Source: Alphaproteobacteria bacterium (GTDB lineage Bacteria; Pseudomonadota; Alphaproteobacteria; Rs-D84). From it: a stretch of DNA of 58,539 nt. This document shows, in pieces, positions 26,639-34,073 of this stretch. The translations under genes and the position numbers were made by a program. The stretch spans positions 1-58,539 of the forward strand of contig JAFURS010000040.1 of the NCBI GenBank assembly GCA_017471805.1. Direction: 5' to 3'. The notes below the pieces were generated by a model. It made no database searches and was not told the origin of the DNA. It saw only the letters and a list, made by a program, of their open reading frames with translations. How positions within the stretch are numbered: position 1 is the stretch's first letter; each line of letters starts with the position of its first letter.

Positions 26639-29113
26639 ATGGCACTAACCCCAAAATGCAAGCGACGAATATTGTGGTCATTACTGTGTGCATTTTGCGC
26701 AATTGTCCTGTGCGCTATTATTATTCCGCCGTTTATCACCCTAAACAGTTTCAAACCTATAATTGAAAAATCCATATACGAACAAATGTTTGTTCCTGCG
26801 AAATTAAATGGGGACATACATTTCAGTCTGGTTGGTGGCGCCACGATTGTTGTTCACGACGTTGATGTTCCAACGGCCCGTATTGGTTCTGTGATGTTGC
26901 ATATTCCATTTTCTGATTTTTTTGACATTGAAAATGCACAACTTGAAAACACAGTATCTGTTTATGATGCCGACATTTCGATTTCAAAACTTGAACCTGC
27001 CTCGTTCAATCACAACATAAACATATACAACAGCACGATTGAATTTCTTGGACGTAAATTTTATGTCATCCGTGCAAAATTCCAAGACGGCGAATTTCAC
27101 GGCACCATTCGCACAGAAAAGCACAAATACGACGTTGAATTTATCGGCGACACATTTCATATCAAGAACAAAAACAACGCCCTTGAAATTACCGGTCAAA
27201 TATACTCAGACGGTTTAATTCGTGGCCACATAAGCCTTGAAACCGATGAAATCAACGACTGGTTTAATTTTTCTGTCCCCAGAATCGACAAAACCATTAA
27301 CGTCAGTGCCAACTTTGAATGGGACGGTGGCGACGGCTATAAATTTACCAACATTCAATCTGACCACATTTCTGGCAACATCGAAATCACCCCTGACGGC
27401 GAACGCATTATCCAATTGGTATCCAACGACCTGGACTTTGACTTTTCGTTCTTAACAACACCGGACACATCATTAAACAAGACAACACTAAATCTGGATT
27501 TATACGGCAAATTACAATTTGGCAACCAAACATTTAACCACCTTCGTGTTATGGCAACATCTGCCCAGAACAAATTACAAATTGGCAATATCCTGGCCGA
27601 CGACATTGCAATCACAGGTGGCACAATAACCCCAAATGGTGCATCAAATATAATGATTACAATGCCTGTAAATAACACAACCGCAATGTGTATATTTTCC
27701 GGCACCCCCAACGATTGGGAATGTTCTGTATTCACATACGGCAACCTATCTGGTTCACTGTCTGTTAATGAATCTGGCTACGATGTTTTTGTTCAATCCA
27801 ACCTGCCAATGCCAAATTCTTCTGAATTATTATCCCTTGCCAAACGATTGGGCAATCACGGCATAATAAACTTTCAATTCTCAGACATTGGTGGTGTATA
27901 TAAAATAAATGACAACAAAATCGACACAACCTATACCTATGCCCAGGACAAAACCCTGTCTTGGCTAAACCTAGATCTGCCATTTTTACCAGACTTCATA
28001 TTAAATGCCCCTGGCGATTTTTCGTGGGACGACGGTATGCTAACCTTTGTTCCATACAATAACCAATGGCAATTATCCACCTATGACAACTATTTTTACC
28101 TGTCCGGCATCAGTTTCAAGACCTGGCTGCCTGAACTAGATTTACAACCCATAAACGATTCAAATTATATAATCACTGGATTTTATTCATCTGGTCGCAT
28201 ATCTAACCTAGAAATCACAATCGACAATCACAAATTCAACGGCAGTTTTTCTGGCAACACCCTGACCCTGCACACCGCTCAGTTATCACTGGACGCAATC
28301 AAAAACCTTGAATACTTTGATAACTTTGCCGAACAAGAATTTTTAACCAATTCCCCTATTTTAATTCCATTTAATCTGCCGGTAAATATTTCCCTGTCGG
28401 CTGACACATTGGTATATGATGGCAACATTTATCAAAATTTCATCTATACCCTGAAACCCAATATCCAGACCTTTTCAATCACAGACTCTGACCGGGGCAA
28501 CATATTGGCAACTATTGAACGTGATAAAACGAACTATGATATATTTGCCCAATTGAACAAGTTCCTAATCAACGGCACACTGCTAAATACAAAAATGCCC
28601 CTTAATATCCAAGATTCAACAATAACCGGCCAAATTCTATTAACAACATCTGGCCAAATTGCCCACGACATAGACTATAATATGACCGGCACACTTGATT
28701 TAACATTTAACGGCGGTAAAATTATTGGAATGTCATTTGATAAATTTTATGCATCCGCCGAAAACATCACATCATTAAATGCCGAATACGCCCTGTCAAA
28801 CGCACTATCTGGTGGCGAAACGGCCCTAAAACAAATGCGGATTATTGGCACCTATGAACACGGAAACTTTATTACCACCCAACCGATTGAAATATCTATG
28901 CGCCACACCAGTGGCATTGGTGGCCTGGCAATAAACGACGGTATGATGACGGCTGAATTTGATTTAACACTGCGTGGCACGGCCCCAACACCTGCAACAA
29001 TCGCATTAAGCATTCTGCCCGACGGCGGTCGTCAGTATTCATTATCTGAAATAATGAAAGACATCGATCCTGGTTTTATGCGTGCATTTGTGAAAACCCA
29101 CGACAAGTTTTAA
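26639..29113 (+). CDS. AsmA-family (lipid-bridge-like) envelope protein
   Basis: 824 aa; N-terminal TM anchor followed by PPFITLNSFKPIIE..LNGDIHFSL; beta-rich throughout; C-terminal AsmA-like region. Confidence 0.7.
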   Translation: MALTPKCKRRILWSLLCAFCAIVLCAIIIPPFITLNSFKPIIEKSIYEQMFVPAKLNGDIHFSLVGGATIVVHDVDVPTARIGSVMLHIPFSDFFDIENAQLENTVSVYDADISISKLEPASFNHNINIYNSTIEFLGRKFYVIRAKFQDGEFHGTIRTEKHKYDVEFIGDTFHIKNKNNALEITGQIYSDGLIRGHISLETDEINDWFNFSVPRIDKTINVSANFEWDGGDGYKFTNIQSDHISGNIEITPDGERIIQLVSNDLDFDFSFLTTPDTSLNKTTLNLDLYGKLQFGNQTFNHLRVMATSAQNKLQIGNILADDIAITGGTITPNGASNIMITMPVNNTTAMCIFSGTPNDWECSVFTYGNLSGSLSVNESGYDVFVQSNLPMPNSSELLSLAKRLGNHGIINFQFSDIGGVYKINDNKIDTTYTYAQDKTLSWLNLDLPFLPDFILNAPGDFSWDDGMLTFVPYNNQWQLSTYDNYFYLSGISFKTWLPELDLQPINDSNYIITGFYSSGRISNLEITIDNHKFNGSFSGNTLTLHTAQLSLDAIKNLEYFDNFAEQEFLTNSPILIPFNLPVNISLSADTLVYDGNIYQNFIYTLKPNIQTFSITDSDRGNILATIERDKTNYDIFAQLNKFLINGTLLNTKMPLNIQDSTITGQILLTTSGQIAHDIDYNMTGTLDLTFNGGKIIGMSFDKFYASAENITSLNAEYALSNALSGGETALKQMRIIGTYEHGNFITTQPIEISMRHTSGIGGLAINDGMMTAEFDLTLRGTAPTPATIALSILPDGGRQYSLSEIMKDIDPGFMRAFVKTHDKF

Positions 29114-29123
29114 TAAAAATTAT

Positions 29124-29471
29124 TTATTGTTTATTTTGCAGAAATTCATCACGTGAAATAACCTGTCCCATTGCATTTGCATAATAAACATATCGTCCAA
29201 CCCGAACACAGTGATAACCATTTGCACAAAATTTTATATTTCTTTGTGCCTGCAACAAGACCCGATTTTTTCCAATTAAATCCGCCCGCACCCCGAACAA
29301 TATTGCCCCAACACGTTGCCAAAACCCATTTGATAAATACGGCGCATACAACACCCCACCCCGCTGTTGCAGACGTGAAAAATTATATCGTTCAAAATGT
29401 GTTTTTAATTTACAGGCTTGATATTGACTCAACCCCATCAGATGACATAACTTGTCTATATTTTTGTGCAT
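29124..29471 (-). CDS. hypothetical basic protein
   Basis: ORF fills the gap between convergent genes; purine-rich leader before ATG 29471. No family recognised. Confidence 0.65.
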   Translation of the reverse strand: MHKNIDKLCHLMGLSQYQACKLKTHFERYNFSRLQQRGGVLYAPYLSNGFWQRVGAILFGVRADLIGKNRVLLQAQRNIKFCANGYHCVRVGRYVYYANAMGQVISRDEFLQNKQ

Positions 29472-29543
29472 AGTATTTTCTCTTTTTACATAATGCACAA
29501 ATTATATATACCCGCATAAAATTCCCAACAGGTATGAATTCAT

Positions 29544-29572
29544 AAAACAAATCCCCCATTTTGGGGGATTGT
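29544..29572 (-). terminator. aspS terminator
   Basis: aatccccca-ttt-tgggggatt stem with a U-rich tail on the minus strand. Confidence 0.75.
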
Positions 29573-29576
29573 GTTC

Positions 29577-31346
29577 CTAGTTCTTTTTTCTAACTTGAAT
29601 ATGAACTTCACGCAACTGTTTTTCAGTCACAGTTGTTGGCGCCCCCATCATCAAGTCTTGCCCACGTTGATTTGTTGGGAAAATCACAACCTGACGCAGA
29701 TTTGGTTCATCCAGCATAATCTGGACCAGTCGGTCCAAACCGAACGCACAACCACCGTGCGGTGGCGCACCATATTGAAATGCGGTATACATACCCCCGA
29801 ACTTTTCCTTAACCACATCTTCGCTGTATCCAGTGATATCAAAACATTTCAACATCACTTCTGGGTTAAAGTTGCGCAATCCACCACTGCAAATTTCTGC
29901 ACCATTTAACACCATATCGAATTGGGCCGCCTTAATATCCAATGGATTTTTTGTATTCAGTTCTTCCAACGTCGCCATCGGATAAGAGAACGGATTATGC
30001 GTGAACGCAATTCCTGTTGGCGATTCTTCATCTTCTTCAAAGAATGGGAATTCTTCTATCCAGCAGAATCTAAATTCTTTTGGATTTATCAGTCCCAAAT
30101 CATCACCCAAACGGTTGCGCAATCTACCTGCGGCCTTGGCGGCTGCATTTTCGGTATCACAGACAAAGAACAAAGACGAATTATCCCCTGCAATTTCACG
30201 CAATTTTGCAATTCGTTCCGCATCTAACTTTTTCGCAACAGGCCCCTTTGCTTCTTCGGCGAATACAATATATCCCAAACCGCCCAGCCCCAGTTCCTTG
30301 ACTGCAAATTCGCCCAATTTATCGAACCAAGAACGTGGTTTATCAGCCGAATTTGGTGCTGGAATTGCACGAACAACGGCCCCATTTTCAATTGCATTTG
30401 CAAAGATTCCAAAATCAGACCCACGGAAAATTTCCGTCACATCACTGATGACAATCGGATTACGCAAATCAGGTTTATCCGAACCATATTTTAACATAGC
30501 CTCGTCAAATGGAATATGTGGGATTTCATCAGCAATAATTGCATCAGGCACAAATTCACGTATCATTTCCGGCATCAGTTTATTACCCACCGCCTGAATA
30601 TCTGGCAGGTCAACAAACGACATTTCCAAATCCAACTGATAAAATTCCAGCAATCTGTCTGCACGTAAATCTTCATCACGGAAACACGGTGCAATCTGGA
30701 AATAGCGGTCAAATCCAGAAATCTGAATAAACTGTTTGAACTGCTGTGGTGCCTGTGGCAACGCATAGAACATACCGTGATGATTACGACTGGGGACGAT
30801 AAAGTCACGGGCCCCTTCTGGGCTGGACGCCGTCAAGATAGGTGTCTGAAATTCAGAAAACCCCATATCCCACATTTTATCACGAATAAATTTCATTACC
30901 CGATTGCGGAACAAGATATTTTTATGCAAACTTTCACGACGCAAATCGATATAACGGTATTTCAAGCGCAAATCTTCGGCAACAGAATCATCATCGCCAA
31001 ACACCTGAAACGGCAAAACATCAGCATTGGTCAACACTTCAAAAGATTCCGCCTGAATTTCGATACCACCTGTTGGGATTTTATCATTAACTGCGGTTGC
31101 GTCACGTGCAACAACCTTACCCACGACCTTGATAACAGATTCCGGGCGCACTTTTTCCAAGACTTCATTACCGCCATCAAAAACCACCTGTGTAATTCCA
31201 TAATTATCACGCAGGTCAACAAACAACAATGCCCCGTGGTCACGCTTACGATGCACCCACCCGGACAAAACAACATTTTCACCAACATTTGTGGTATTTA
31301 ATTCCCCACACGTATGTGTTCTATACTTTGATTTCAAAGATAACAT
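29577..31346 (-). CDS. aspS: aspartate--tRNA ligase (possibly non-discriminating)
   Basis: RTHTCG, RDHG..FVDLRD, PEGARDF, CFRDEDLRADR, PPHGG..GLDR. Start at ATG 31346 after AAGGGA. Confidence 0.98.
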   Translation of the reverse strand: MLSLKSKYRTHTCGELNTTNVGENVVLSGWVHRKRDHGALLFVDLRDNYGITQVVFDGGNEVLEKVRPESVIKVVGKVVARDATAVNDKIPTGGIEIQAESFEVLTNADVLPFQVFGDDDSVAEDLRLKYRYIDLRRESLHKNILFRNRVMKFIRDKMWDMGFSEFQTPILTASSPEGARDFIVPSRNHHGMFYALPQAPQQFKQFIQISGFDRYFQIAPCFRDEDLRADRLLEFYQLDLEMSFVDLPDIQAVGNKLMPEMIREFVPDAIIADEIPHIPFDEAMLKYGSDKPDLRNPIVISDVTEIFRGSDFGIFANAIENGAVVRAIPAPNSADKPRSWFDKLGEFAVKELGLGGLGYIVFAEEAKGPVAKKLDAERIAKLREIAGDNSSLFFVCDTENAAAKAAGRLRNRLGDDLGLINPKEFRFCWIEEFPFFEEDEESPTGIAFTHNPFSYPMATLEELNTKNPLDIKAAQFDMVLNGAEICSGGLRNFNPEVMLKCFDITGYSEDVVKEKFGGMYTAFQYGAPPHGGCAFGLDRLVQIMLDEPNLRQVVIFPTNQRGQDLMMGAPTTVTEKQLREVHIQVRKKN

Positions 31347-31420
31347 TTTGGTCCCTTTTTTTGTAATCCGGGCCCCAAAAAACAAAGTTGAAATTCGGCA
31401 CCCGACTTAATTGTTAACGT

Positions 31421-31525
31421 TCAGGGGCGCAAGTCTAAAATGGCTGCGCGGTGCCACCCTGATTTATAACTTTTACAAAAAAACTCACTCCGTGGTTGTC
31501 AGTCACATCATCGTGCGCTTTTTCA
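31421..31525 (-). promoter_or_regulatory. T-box riboswitch (Asp specifier), minimal architecture
   Basis: Antiterminator UCAGGG-UGGCACC-GCGCAG...UUGCGC-CCCUGA; short Stem I with GA (K-turn) motif and loop ACU-GAC-AAC. Confidence 0.85.
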
Positions 31526-31533
31526 ATATCCCG

Positions 31534-31562
31534 ATATTAGATTAAAAAAATCCCATTTGCAA
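31534..31562 (-). promoter_or_regulatory. sigma70 promoter of the T-box/aspS transcript
   Basis: TTGCAA-N17-TAATAT placing the start site just 5' of Stem I. Confidence 0.65.
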
Positions 31563-31585
31563 TAAAAACTTATCAACCCATACGG

Positions 31586-31650
31586 TGCGTTAACAGTGCC
31601 GTTCCCGCAGTATACTAATGATACACAAGGGAACGGCACCGTTCATAGAT
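31586..31650. repeat. RPE-like palindromic element (partial copy)
   Basis: aacagtgccgttccc-gcagtatactaatgatacacaa-gggaacggcaccgtt; homologous to the copies at 45127-45347. Confidence 0.75.
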
Positions 31651-31656
31651 ATATCA

Positions 31657-32556
31657 TTAGATTCTATTTAAGAAGGCAACTGCATCCATACCTGCCACAC
31701 ACCCTGTCCCGACAGCGGTTGCAATCTGCATTTTTAGTTCGGAATGAACATCGCCTGCGACAAACATACCCGCCGGCAGGGCCGATGGTGCCAACCGCCC
31801 CAACGCATCACGTTTTATATCTTCGGATAAATAATCTGTATTTGCTTCGTGTCCAATGGCGACAAAGACCCCATCAACAACCATTTCTTCGCCGTCTGTG
31901 GTCGTCACAATCAGTTCACCATCTTCGGAATCTGGCTTTGCTGCAATTTTTGCCAGGTCGGTATTAAACAGACATTCAATATTATCACGTGCCTCAACCC
32001 GTTCACGTAAAACCGCCTCGGCCCGGGTAAATGCACCCTTGCGATAAACGATTTTAACCGTCTTTGCTAAATCAGCCAGATACAATGCGTCGTTCAACGC
32101 ACTGTTTCCGCCTCCCAGAACGATGACTGTTTTTCCACTATAAAAGAATCCATCACACGTCGCACAGTATGACACACCCCGTCCCATAAATTCACGTGCG
32201 CCTTCGATTTCCAACTTTCTGGGACTGGCCCCTGTTGCGATAATAACCGTGCGTGCACGATACTCCGTGCCATTATCAGCCACAACGACAAACCCATCTT
32301 GTGCATTACCTGAAACATTTTTTGCAGACACAAAATCCACCACTGCCCCAAATGTTTCACACTGTTTTTGCATAAATTGTGCCAATTCCAGACCACTGCC
32401 GGCCCAACCTGGATAATTTTCCAATACTGCAATTCCTGCGGTCTGTCCCCCCAATCTATCGCCCCCCAGAACTAATGTTTTTTTATTTGCCCGTGCGGTA
32501 TATAATGCCGCTGTTAAACCTGCGGGACCTGAACCTAAAATAATAACATCATACAT
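31657..32556 (-). CDS. trxB: thioredoxin-disulfide reductase
   Basis: GSGPAG, GVSYCATCDG, GGGNSA, FVAGD motifs. Confidence 0.93.
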   Translation of the reverse strand: MYDVIILGSGPAGLTAALYTARANKKTLVLGGDRLGGQTAGIAVLENYPGWAGSGLELAQFMQKQCETFGAVVDFVSAKNVSGNAQDGFVVVADNGTEYRARTVIIATGASPRKLEIEGAREFMGRGVSYCATCDGFFYSGKTVIVLGGGNSALNDALYLADLAKTVKIVYRKGAFTRAEAVLRERVEARDNIECLFNTDLAKIAAKPDSEDGELIVTTTDGEEMVVDGVFVAIGHEANTDYLSEDIKRDALGRLAPSALPAGMFVAGDVHSELKMQIATAVGTGCVAGMDAVAFLNRI

Positions 32557-32632
32557 AATTTACCTTCCTTTACCTGCCCCAGCATAACACAAGGCATAAA
32601 TTCACGCAAACAAAAACCGCACAATGAAAATA

Positions 32633-32661
32633 TTGCATTAAGATTAAAAGTGCTTTATAAT
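32633..32661 (+). promoter_or_regulatory. sigma70 promoter of the serS leader
   Basis: TTGCAT-N17-TATAAT. Confidence 0.75.
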
Positions 32662-32671
32662 ACCAACTGAT

Positions 32672-32728
32672 ATGTCAACAAAATTTGCATATTTTTCATC
32701 TGCATATTCATCCCCGGTTGGGGAATAA
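32672..32728 (+). CDS. putative Ser-rich leader peptide (18 aa)
   Basis: MSTKFAYFSSAYSSPVGE*; 5 Ser codons including two tandem pairs; lies between the promoter and serS. Confidence 0.6.
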   Translation: MSTKFAYFSSAYSSPVGE

Positions 32729-32795
32729 ATCATTTGCAATTTTTTTACTAGAACCTATTATCATTATAAATAAAAATTAACCAAGGAAGACAACA

Positions 32796-34073
32796 ATGTT
32801 GGATATGAAATTTATTCGTGAAAATCCAGACGCAGTAAAAAAGGCCTGCGAATTAAAAGGATTCGAAGATTACACAGACGAAATTTTGGCCCTGGACGCC
32901 CGTGTTCGTGAATTAAAAACAATTACCCAGTCCAAGACCGCCGAAAAAAATAAAATCACACGTGAAATACCAACCGCCACGGACAAAGCACCTTTGATTG
33001 CCGCATCCAAAGAAATTGCGAATGAAATTGCAAACGATATGGCGGAACTGGCTGATAAAGAGGCTCAACTAGACGACCTGTTGCACCGTGTGCCACAAAT
33101 TCCATCTGCGGATGCCCCGATTGGCCGTGACGACAGCGAAAATGTCGAAGTTCGTCGTGTTGGCACCCCACGTGAATTTGACTTTACCCCACGTCCCCAG
33201 TGGGAATTACTGGAAATGAACGGTTGGTGGAAACCTGAAAAGATTGCATCTATCTGTGGCACCCGGACTTACGCCCTGTTTGGCGAAGCCGCCGAACTGG
33301 AACTGGCGATTCAAACATATGTATTACAGAAACTGATGTCCCGTGGTTTTACATTTGTAAATTGTCCATCTATTACAAAGCCCCAAACAATCTTTGACGC
33401 CGGCCATTTCAAAGGCACCGACCAATCGGTTATGGCAAACGACGTATTTATGTTAACCGACACCGACCGTTGTCTGGCAGGCACTGCGGAAATCATCTTA
33501 AATTCCCTGCACAGTGATGAAGTTTTGAACGAAAAAGATTTACCGATTAAATACGCAGGCTTTTCGCCCTGTTTCCGCAAAGAAGCGGGTGCCGCCGGTC
33601 GTGACACCCGTGGAATCGTGCGCATACACCAATTTAACAAGGTCGAACAATACATCTATTGCACACCTGAACAATCTGATGAAATGCACGAACATTTATT
33701 AAACAATCTGTGTGACGTGATGGCTGATTTGGAATTACCATACCGTGTTATTGCCGCCTGCACTGGTGATATGGGCTTTAACAAGGTCAAAATGCACGAC
33801 GTCGAAGCCTGGTTCCCCAGTGAAAACACATACCGTGAATTAGGTTCTTGTTCATCGATTGGCCAATTCCAGGCCCGTCGCACAAACACACGTTTCCGTG
33901 CAAATGACGGTTCAATGCGTTTCTGTGCGACATTGAACAACACCGGCATTGCATTGCCACGTGCAATTGTGCCAGTGATTGAAAACCACCAAAACCCAGA
34001 CGGTTCTGTGAACATTCCAAAATGCTTGCAACCACTGATGGGTGGTCGCACCAAGATTGGTGGAAAGCACTAA
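32796..34073 (+). CDS. serS: serine--tRNA ligase
   Basis: MLDMKFIREN, GTAE, CFRKEAG..GRDTRG..RIHQF.KVE, ELGSCS, TLNNTG.A..R. Confidence 0.98.
   Translation: MLDMKFIRENPDAVKKACELKGFEDYTDEILALDARVRELKTITQSKTAEKNKITREIPTATDKAPLIAASKEIANEIANDMAELADKEAQLDDLLHRVPQIPSADAPIGRDDSENVEVRRVGTPREFDFTPRPQWELLEMNGWWKPEKIASICGTRTYALFGEAAELELAIQTYVLQKLMSRGFTFVNCPSITKPQTIFDAGHFKGTDQSVMANDVFMLTDTDRCLAGTAEIILNSLHSDEVLNEKDLPIKYAGFSPCFRKEAGAAGRDTRGIVRIHQFNKVEQYIYCTPEQSDEMHEHLLNNLCDVMADLELPYRVIAACTGDMGFNKVKMHDVEAWFPSENTYRELGSCSSIGQFQARRTNTRFRANDGSMRFCATLNNTGIALPRAIVPVIENHQNPDGSVNIPKCLQPLMGGRTKIGGKH

Follow-up and report, generated by a model that had tools for sequence, protein, structure and literature searches.

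The window analysed here is the whole 58,539-nt stretch of contig JAFURS010000040.1 (GenBank assembly GCA_017471805.1). On its minus strand, ahead of aspS, the gene for aspartate--tRNA ligase (AspRS), it carries a leader whose sequence argues for a real, strongly reduced T-box riboswitch and a new structural variant of this class. The element is probably functional, sensing tRNA and acting on translation through a competitor that pairs with the T-box bulge. Its core spans about 103 nt (31523-31421; Table 1) and displays an antiterminator with a bulge of the UGGNACC type, a specifier codon followed by a purine, a discriminator match and a GA motif. Uncharged tRNA-Asp (anticodon GUC) would pair with the codon GAC in the terminal loop of the K-turn hairpin, and the 3' end of the tRNA, GCCA, would pair with UGGC of the antiterminator bulge. 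As far as can be recognised, these two short pairings, codon with anticodon and UGGC with GCCA, would be the only contacts with the tRNA. The coordinates given in the original prediction are all correct, and each part of the element lies on the minus strand where it had been placed. Its identification of a T-box from the agreement of gene, specifier and discriminator also holds, and is backed by conservation and covariation.

Conservation can be observed in loci that were chosen by AspRS homology alone. The motif GGTGGCACC lies 60-140 nt ahead of the aspS start in all 24 same-genus loci. At the level of the order it is found upstream of aspS in three of the four readable loci, being absent in L029, and one further locus (L032) is cut and unreadable. 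In an alignment of 25 leaders obtained through AspRS homology, no change is seen (25 of 25) in the UGA and GA of the K-turn, in the specifier's AC or anywhere in the T-box core. From this alignment RNAalifold recovered both the antiterminator and Stem I, and compensation was present in 12 of 25 pairs. Furthermore, a scan of one genome per species with a fixed-sequence pattern, in which TGA, G, AC, C, GA and the T-box core were fixed and the covarying positions were left free, returned at least 120 loci. An AspRS 69-97% identical to that of the window is encoded directly downstream in 111 of these (at least 120), while 3 loci end too early for the downstream gene to be judged. Two other pattern matches (L036 and L056) look like chance matches within GC-rich coding-like sequence, and L072 has a TrpB-like gene downstream. 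One more candidate, L306, was rejected as a T-box, being a plain hairpin.

Covariation was evaluated for 127 distinct leaders on a structure of 22 pairs. Within this structure 91.5% of cells are paired, compared with 37-53% in slid controls, and cells with double changes number 441 as opposed to 120 in shuffles. Compensatory changes are present in 14 of the 22 pairs, including all six inner pairs of the Stem I base helix, three of the six pairs in helix A1 and three of six in helix A2. The original prediction had named the absence of covariation in orthologous leaders as its own refutation; covariation is present. A covariance model built from the 127-leader alignment (model R1) displays one strong match in the genome from which the window derives, with 94.8 bits, the next best match having an E-value of about 0.8. 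With the same model, a single match was obtained in each of 106 among the 107 genus genomes, and in 117 of 121 genomes of the family. The original prediction had also suggested scanning the leaders of other aminoacyl-tRNA synthetase genes in this genome. Throughout the 793-kb assembly, neither the T-box model of Rfam nor model R1 matches any of them, and aspS seems to be the sole T-box-controlled gene of the genome.

Regarding architecture, Stem I ends in a 9-nt loop located only four pairs above the K-turn, and the distal platform, consisting of AG bulge and distal loop, with which a long Stem I stacks on the tRNA elbow, is lacking. T-boxes have a K-turn or GA motif at the base of Stem I, and here the sequence presents a K-turn-like one, a 3-nt bulge followed by GA opposite GA. 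Between Stem I and the antiterminator there is a linker of 16 nt, for which about 15 nt had been given. No conserved helix occurs in it, either in the 25-leader alignment or in the 127-leader structure, in agreement with the earlier claim that Stem II and Stem III are missing. Stem IIA/B is missing likewise; Stem II with its S-turn and the IIA/B pseudoknot with the F-box, which in class II T-boxes support the helix of codon and anticodon, are absent in the window and its family. The purines of the linker are near-invariant: among 126 alignment rows, A71 is retained in 123, A72 in 118, G73 in 118, A76 in 125, A78 in 126 and A79 in 125, none of them having been fixed by the search pattern. The order of the linker, AAAAG, four nucleotides and AA, matches the RRRNG..AA flanks of Stem III given in the introduction of the TBDB paper (PMC7778990). 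The M. tuberculosis ileS T-box has, in the accessible part of PMC12647780, a conserved linker GAG as the counterpart of these purines. An extension of helix A1, in which the linker GUUAUA would pair with a downstream UUUAAC, was dropped, as GUGAUA variants are uncompensated and no helix is predicted. Since order-level relatives keep Stem II and the F-box, the family of the window can be regarded as the end point of a series of T-box reduction.

The specifier position was compared across the same 127 distinct leaders, of which 102 carry GAC, 25 carry AAC and none carries CAC or UAC, the first base having been free in the search pattern. A purine follows the specifier codon in T-boxes, and here it is found in 126 of 126 rows. 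On an AspRS tree constructed with FastTree, without support values, for 118 leaders (9 of the 127 were dropped as short fragments), GAC and AAC were exchanged at least 17 times. No asnS above the cut-off was found in the window's own genome or in any of 41 genomes of the genus, and gatB is present in the own genome with 479.7 bits; AspRS is therefore probably non-discriminating. Were the enzyme to charge both tRNAs, tRNA-Asp or tRNA-Asn would report on AspRS. About one related species in five has AAC as its specifier, which tRNA-Asn would read, in keeping with an AspRS that charges both tRNAs. In one same-genus genome (G003), tRNA-Asp(GUC) and tRNA-Asn(GUU) both end in G73-CCA, the complement of UGGC. 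Free exchange of Asp and Asn specifiers ahead of a single gene would represent a readout of a non-discriminating AspRS. Two further observations concern related synthetases. A paralogue of about 445 aa, present in 8 of the 41 genus genomes, reaches 118-248 bits on the asnS model, below the cut-off. In three relatives (L300 of G148, L301 of G154 and L305 of G036), the gene behind the T-box, which is either of the mini form or equipped with Stem II, is a different and shorter one of class IIb synthetase-like type; this gene is not the bacterial aspS, and its N-terminus is unlike the MLSLKSKYRTHTCGEL type.

The output of the element was examined between the antiterminator and the aspS start. Neither a terminator scan nor reading of the sequence revealed a stem followed by a U-tract between 31420 and 31347, in line with the original prediction, which had seen no clear terminator, and because no terminator exists, ribosome access to the Shine-Dalgarno (SD) motif would most likely be the output. 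AAGG is the commonest motif ahead of long open reading frames (ORFs) in the own genome (107 of 319), while GGTGCC stands ahead of 1 of the 319 only. A hairpin between the antiterminator and the SD, with -8 to -23 kcal/mol, is predicted in 113-115 of 127 leaders, and in the window it is followed by an A-rich spacer before the SD and by no U-tract. Its 5' arm contains GGUGCC in 110 of 114 leaders, the next base being G or A, whereas 60 different 7-mers are found in the 3' arm. The two C's of GGUGCC hardly vary, although the predictions leave them unpaired in 34 and 46 of 113 hairpins. GGUGCC is perfectly complementary to the GGCACC of the bulge, and together with the next purine it allows 7 pairs with UGGCACC; moreover, its GCC(A/G) resembles the tRNA end GCCA. 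In six leaders (L013, L020, L060, L108, L112 and L136), one or two hairpins of about 30 nt are inserted between the conserved hairpin and the SD. The insert, consisting of UCCCACUUCGC, a few nucleotides and then GUGGGA, resembles a short repeated element.

This complementarity is easier to interpret in sister genera within the family. In all eight of their short leaders the SD region is GGUGCCA, GGGUGCCA, GGUGUC, GGUGC, GGAUGCCA or GGUGUU, and in 8 of 8 the bulge is its partner in the minimum-energy fold, which lies 1.3-9.1 kcal/mol below the bulge-free fold. On the basis of such folding, these leaders would be OFF by default, with uncharged tRNA favouring the antisequestrator, as in the usual T-box logic, and with a competitor that pairs with the bulge. 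The competitor of known translational T-boxes has the antisequestrator's 3' strand as its partner. For the window, the models make translational control likely, with GGUGCC as the likely competitor for the bulge. In the OFF state, when the bulge is free of uncharged tRNA, GGUGCC could leave the hairpin and pair with the bulge, and the released C-/U-rich arm of the hairpin and/or the CCCU of helix A1 could then cover the SD region. When the pairing of the bulge with GGUGCC is forced, at least three SD nucleotides are paired in 108 of 113 leaders. The original prediction had proposed that CCCU sequesters AGGG of the SD. This pairing is indeed selected by folding in most leaders when the bulge and the 5' strand of A1 are blocked, CCCU being the 3' strand of A1, and at least three SD nucleotides are then paired in 123 of 127. 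It consists, however, of only 4 bp and has a median cost of 4.1 kcal/mol, and in these models GGUGCC, complementary to the bulge, appears as the better candidate for the competing pairing. Binding of the tRNA, the assignment of states as ON or OFF, and the relay from GGUGCC to the SD are what we infer from this arrangement. A more specific account, which is offered tentatively, is that some 100 nt of T-box recognise the tRNA by two short pairings only, with neither elbow platform nor Stem II, that the bulge UGGCACC doubles as an anti-SD, and that GGUGCCA, at the ribosome binding site, is a mimic in cis of the tRNA acceptor end, competing with the 3' end of the tRNA for the same seven nucleotides. 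On this account the mimic would, in the genus of the window, have shifted to a relay hairpin that lies upstream of a new SD.

The same T-box could also possess another output, namely non-canonical or Rho-dependent release of the transcript or tRNA-dependent decay of the mRNA, with the hairpin as a processing or stability element. Mini T-boxes that share the core, from bacteria of the Candidate Phyla Radiation (CPR) and from one Eubacteriales metagenome-assembled genome (MAG), do end in ordinary terminators. SD-covering pairings are weak in the window's genus, and the leader is A/U-rich single-stranded RNA around a stable hairpin. Such an output is nevertheless considered rather unlikely. The stretch 31420-31347 contains no stem with a U-tract, the sequence behind the hairpin is A-rich in the leaders read, and the leader is C-poor, which is not suggestive of a Rho loading site. 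Furthermore, the minimum-energy fold of the sister genera is a clear sequestrator formed by the SD and the bulge. Translational control by competition for the bulge is thus the reading preferred here.

Several findings weigh against a switching T-box of this kind. At the gathering threshold, Rfam returned three tRNAs only in the window and no T-box; with an E-value threshold, the T-box model RF00230 reached 23.7 bits in comparison with a gathering cut-off of 93 (E 0.0022 on 401 nt). The stability of the single-sequence fold equals that of shuffles (z -0.20). Both values would be compatible with a chance resemblance or with another RNA family, an explanation to which we assign hardly any probability. 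Chance resemblance is excluded because of conservation, covariation and intermediate forms, the latter being leaders of the same order with Stem II and F-box, at 41-46 bits, that link the element to ordinary T-boxes; the match to G73 points in the same direction. The comparison with the Rfam model, by which the original prediction was to be checked, gave a divided result. The antiterminator aligned well, AUCAGGGUGGCACCGCG..CGCCCCU fitting the consensus with high posterior probability, and it alone was placed right, under the cut-off as stated. The model's placement of Stem I falls on an unrelated hairpin behind the trxB-like gene and was rejected. Regarding the ligand, no tRNA-Asp was found in the own assembly, which is 79.6% complete and in which 34 tRNAs were found. 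No tRNA-Asn was found there either, and neither tRNA was found in 152 further loci that were searched. Odd ARAGORN calls across contig ends, tRNA-Phe c[3462,69] and tRNA-Met [6420,9] on the own contigs C14 and C52, are probably due to contigs being treated as circular. RNA contigs from two metatranscriptome runs and two others, compared with 29300-32800, comprise pieces of aspS and the trxB-like gene and leave 31243-31597, including the leader, uncovered; such contigs show neither ends nor levels and permit no inference for or against transcription of the leader.

The folding energies belong to the same side of the balance. In the window, the antiterminator together with the hairpin is the minimum, at -31.7 kcal/mol compared with -27.0 kcal/mol for the state with bulge and GGUGCC paired. 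The latter state thus lies 4.7 kcal/mol higher in the window; across the leaders the difference has a median of 2.6 kcal/mol, and only 25 of 113 give this state an energy as low or lower. With the antiterminator fold lowest, the switch would by energy alone sit ON, and 78 of 127 leaders leave the whole SD unpaired in this fold. Complementarity between the freed hairpin arm and the SD is barely above that expected from composition, with a median z of -0.77, z being below -2 in 24 and above 0 in 31 of 112 leaders. Bulge, GGUGCC and SD are near-invariant, which places their pairings beyond covariation testing, and the bulge was also fixed by the pattern. Six short leaders, with GGGACC or GGGUCC as SD, have neither a good complement of the bulge nor the hairpin. 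For the window, duplex prediction allows its SD region GGGACCA to form UGG:CCA plus CC:GG with the bulge.

These energies would suit a conserved fold that no longer switches in the genus, the SD being always open and the structure being kept for mRNA stability or for tRNA docking. Antiterminator and hairpin constitute the predicted minimum, with the SD unpaired, in 88 of 113 leaders, and no clear competitor pairing is displayed. This explanation is regarded as improbable, more so than a different output, in view of what has been held constant. G/A flips, of which there were at least 17, have left the specifier with codons for Asp and Asn only, and the purine after the codon and those of the linker are invariant though free in the pattern. 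UGGCACC is invariant in 25 of 25 leaders obtained by AspRS homology alone, and GGUGCC is invariant in contrast to its variable partner arm. The constancy of specifier, purines, bulge and GGUGCC therefore argues for selection on both tRNA reading and an alternative pairing.

The taxonomic position of the element was assessed through AspRS. The enzyme of the window is 95-97% identical to that of MAGs titled Candidatus Enterousia sp., the best named among the matches listed. Most of the other matches listed are titled Alphaproteobacteria bacterium or uncultured Rickettsiales and come from animal guts. NCBI places Candidatus Enterousia in Alphaproteobacteria incertae sedis. Identity to 60 other alphaproteobacterial genera is 47-61%, a range that stands without G355 (54%), which is included in the sample, and identity to a sample from the phylum of a Eubacteriales MAG (Bacillota-type) is 40-49%. 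As its AspRS is closer to the alphaproteobacterial than to the Bacillota-type enzymes, aspS looks native, not imported together with the leader. The original prediction had pointed to an unexpected phylum. The AspRS identities bear out the alphaproteobacterial taxon. Other phyla share the mini architecture, as it is found also in the CPR, where 13 of 151 genomes sampled have a model match at E up to 0.001; the mini variant is thus wider than the genus of the window. RF00230 gave nothing above the cut-off, and one weak match, in 151 genomes of 150 alphaproteobacterial genera. A further alphaproteobacterial genome (G420) carries a fuller T-box form before aspS, with an AAC specifier. Earlier surveys reported proteobacterial T-boxes only before leuA of Geobacter and Pelobacter, according to the accessible part of PMC2494555. 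No prior description of a mini T-box was found in the literature searched, much subscription literature being outside reach and a listing in TBDB being possible, and no relevant paper on T-boxes in Alphaproteobacteria or in CPR/Patescibacteria was found in it.

Table 1. Features of the aspS leader and the adjoining genes (positions in the window).
Feature	Position	Strand	Remarks
Promoter candidate, sigma-70-type	TTGCAA 31562-31557; 17-nt spacer; TAATAT 31539-31534	minus	sequence reading; weak, inferred
Ultrashort Stem I	31523-31479	minus	base helix, K-turn-like GA motif, 4-bp upper stem, 9-nt terminal loop
Stem I base helix	AAAAAGCGCAC 31523-31513 with GUGAGUUUUU 31488-31479	minus	11 positions, one G.A mismatch
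K-turn-like motif	bulge GAU 31512-31510; GA 31509-31508 opposite GA 31490-31489	minus	
Stem I upper stem	UGUG 31507-31504 with CACG 31494-31491	minus	
Stem I terminal loop	ACUGACAAC 31503-31495	minus	9 nt
Specifier codon GAC (Asp)	31500-31498	minus	in terminal loop; then purine A31497
Linker	31478-31463	minus	single-stranded, 16 nt; conserved purines AAAAG-UUAU-AA
Antiterminator/antisequestrator	31462-31421	minus	covariation and Rfam alignment
Helix A1	UCAGGG 31462-31457 with CCCUGA 31426-31421	minus	
T-box bulge UGGCACC	31456-31450	minus	7 nt; UGGC would pair with tRNA 3' end GCCA
Helix A2	GCGCAG 31449-31444 with UUGCGC 31432-31427	minus	11-nt loop between
Conserved hairpin between antiterminator and SD	31405-31368	minus	5' arm GGUGCC 31402-31397; 3' arm 31380-31368
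SD AAGGGA	31357-31352	minus	subsequent CCA 31350-31348 could pair with bulge UGG
aspS start AUG	31346-31344	minus	
aspS, aspartate--tRNA ligase	31346-29577	minus	589 aa; NF001750, 742.5 bits, cut-off 443
Thioredoxin-reductase-like (trxB-like) gene	31657-32556	minus	upstream of aspS
serS	32796-34073	plus	divergent; 240 nt from trxB-like gene

Of the promoter proposed by the original prediction, the two hexamers stand where they had been placed, and the assignment is a weak one: they match 8 of 12 consensus positions (four in each) and were not flagged by the promoter scan. TTGCAA is the commonest -35 among the best sites of relatives (28 of 103), and the -10 of relatives ends 25-32 nt ahead of the K-turn UGA in 56 of 103. 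Behind the stop of the trxB-like gene (31590-31650, minus strand) lies a long inverted repeat, ACGGUGCCGUUCCC, about 22 nt and then GGGAACGGCACUGU, which is probably the terminator hairpin of that gene, without a clear U-tract, and which drew weak matches to microRNA families. On the other side, an ORF of 824 aa (26639-29113, plus strand) adjoins aspS, and a comparison with NCBIfam at E up to 0.001 gave no match for it.

The wider meaning of the element lies in how little RNA it contains. In current accounts, as given in the accessible part of the review PMC7583486, a T-box needs either the platform of a long Stem I or Stem II to hold the tRNA. Here a natural family possesses neither platform nor Stem II and is kept in more than 100 species. 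This suggests that an RNA much smaller than those of the described T-box types may be enough to sense tRNA. The minimal requirements of tRNA sensing are directly testable on an RNA of about 100 nt, and a small tRNA-responsive switch would be useful for design. T-boxes are extended to Alphaproteobacteria and, with the side observations, to CPR bacteria; a wider distribution of the mini design lowers its uniqueness and raises its general interest. According to the accessible part of PMC7778990, TBDB discarded sequences shorter than 100 nt, and its class II model was run genome-wide in Actinobacteria only. Since scores on the Rfam model are far below threshold and TBDB has these limits, such mini T-boxes are probably missed systematically by annotation.

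A series of related leaders can be arranged around the element. Four aspS leaders from other families of the same order or class (L028, L030, L031 and L236) share with the window a GAC or AAC specifier, an ultrashort Stem I, the UGGC bulge and the lack of a terminator. Unlike the window, they keep Stem II and the F-box CCGUUA, L236 has Stem III in addition, and the GGUGCC element is absent in all four. Their RF00230 scores are 41-56 bits (41-46 at the level of the order) compared with 23.7 in the window, and in the alignments of the order-level relatives the distal part of Stem I is deleted whereas Stem II and the F-box CCGUUA are kept. When seven relatives' loci were scanned with RF00230 at E up to 0.01, only the three order-level leaders were found, and none from the CPR or from Eubacteriales. 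The mini T-boxes of the CPR (L221/L144, L048 and L222) resemble the window in consisting of a K-turn hairpin with the specifier in its loop and an antiterminator, with neither Stem II nor Stem III. Their linker of about 20-25 nt ends in AAAUCAGGGUGG or similar and their length is 85-105 nt; they differ from the window in having terminator hairpins with U-tracts and no GGUGCC. L144 (AAC) and L048 (GAC) precede an archaeal-type non-discriminating aspartate--tRNA(Asn) ligase, and L222 (G208:C6:17444-17544), with an ACC specifier and UGGA, precedes thrS (533 bits). A further leader, L073 of the Eubacteriales MAG, lacks Stem II and combines an ultrashort Stem I, whose loop contains GAC, with Stem III, an antiterminator of the UGGC type and a classical terminator. 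It precedes hisS (502.8 bits) and looks like an operon of the hisS-aspS type read by tRNA-Asp.

Among the described systems, T-boxes of the glyQS type, as presented in the accessible part of PMC7583486, likewise have no Stem II or IIA/B, a K-turn at the base of Stem I and the same bulge. They keep a long Stem I with elbow platform, Stem III and an intrinsic terminator, all of which the window lacks. The closest described class is that of the actinobacterial ileS T-boxes with ultrashort Stem I (class II), which are translational according to the same review, citing Sherwood et al. 2015, in the part available. As in the window, Stem I is short, lacks the elbow platform and has the specifier in its terminal loop, the discriminator core is UGGN, no terminator is present and control is presumed to act through SD access. 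For M. tuberculosis ileS, the accessible part of PMC12647780 describes the constructs T87 (the decoding domain alone), T166 (the core) and T229. The actinobacterial leaders retain Stem II, the IIA/B pseudoknot and Stem III, and this 166-nt core exceeds the approximately 103 nt found here, in accordance with the earlier claim that the element is smaller than the described classes. The amino acid (Asp/Asn) and the phylum differ as well. Moreover, the actinobacterial sequestrator is described, in the sources as far as available, as terminator-like, whereas the best candidate for a competitor in the window would pair with the bulge itself. The element is thus closest to the actinobacterial class with ultrashort Stem I, without the Stem II domain of that class.

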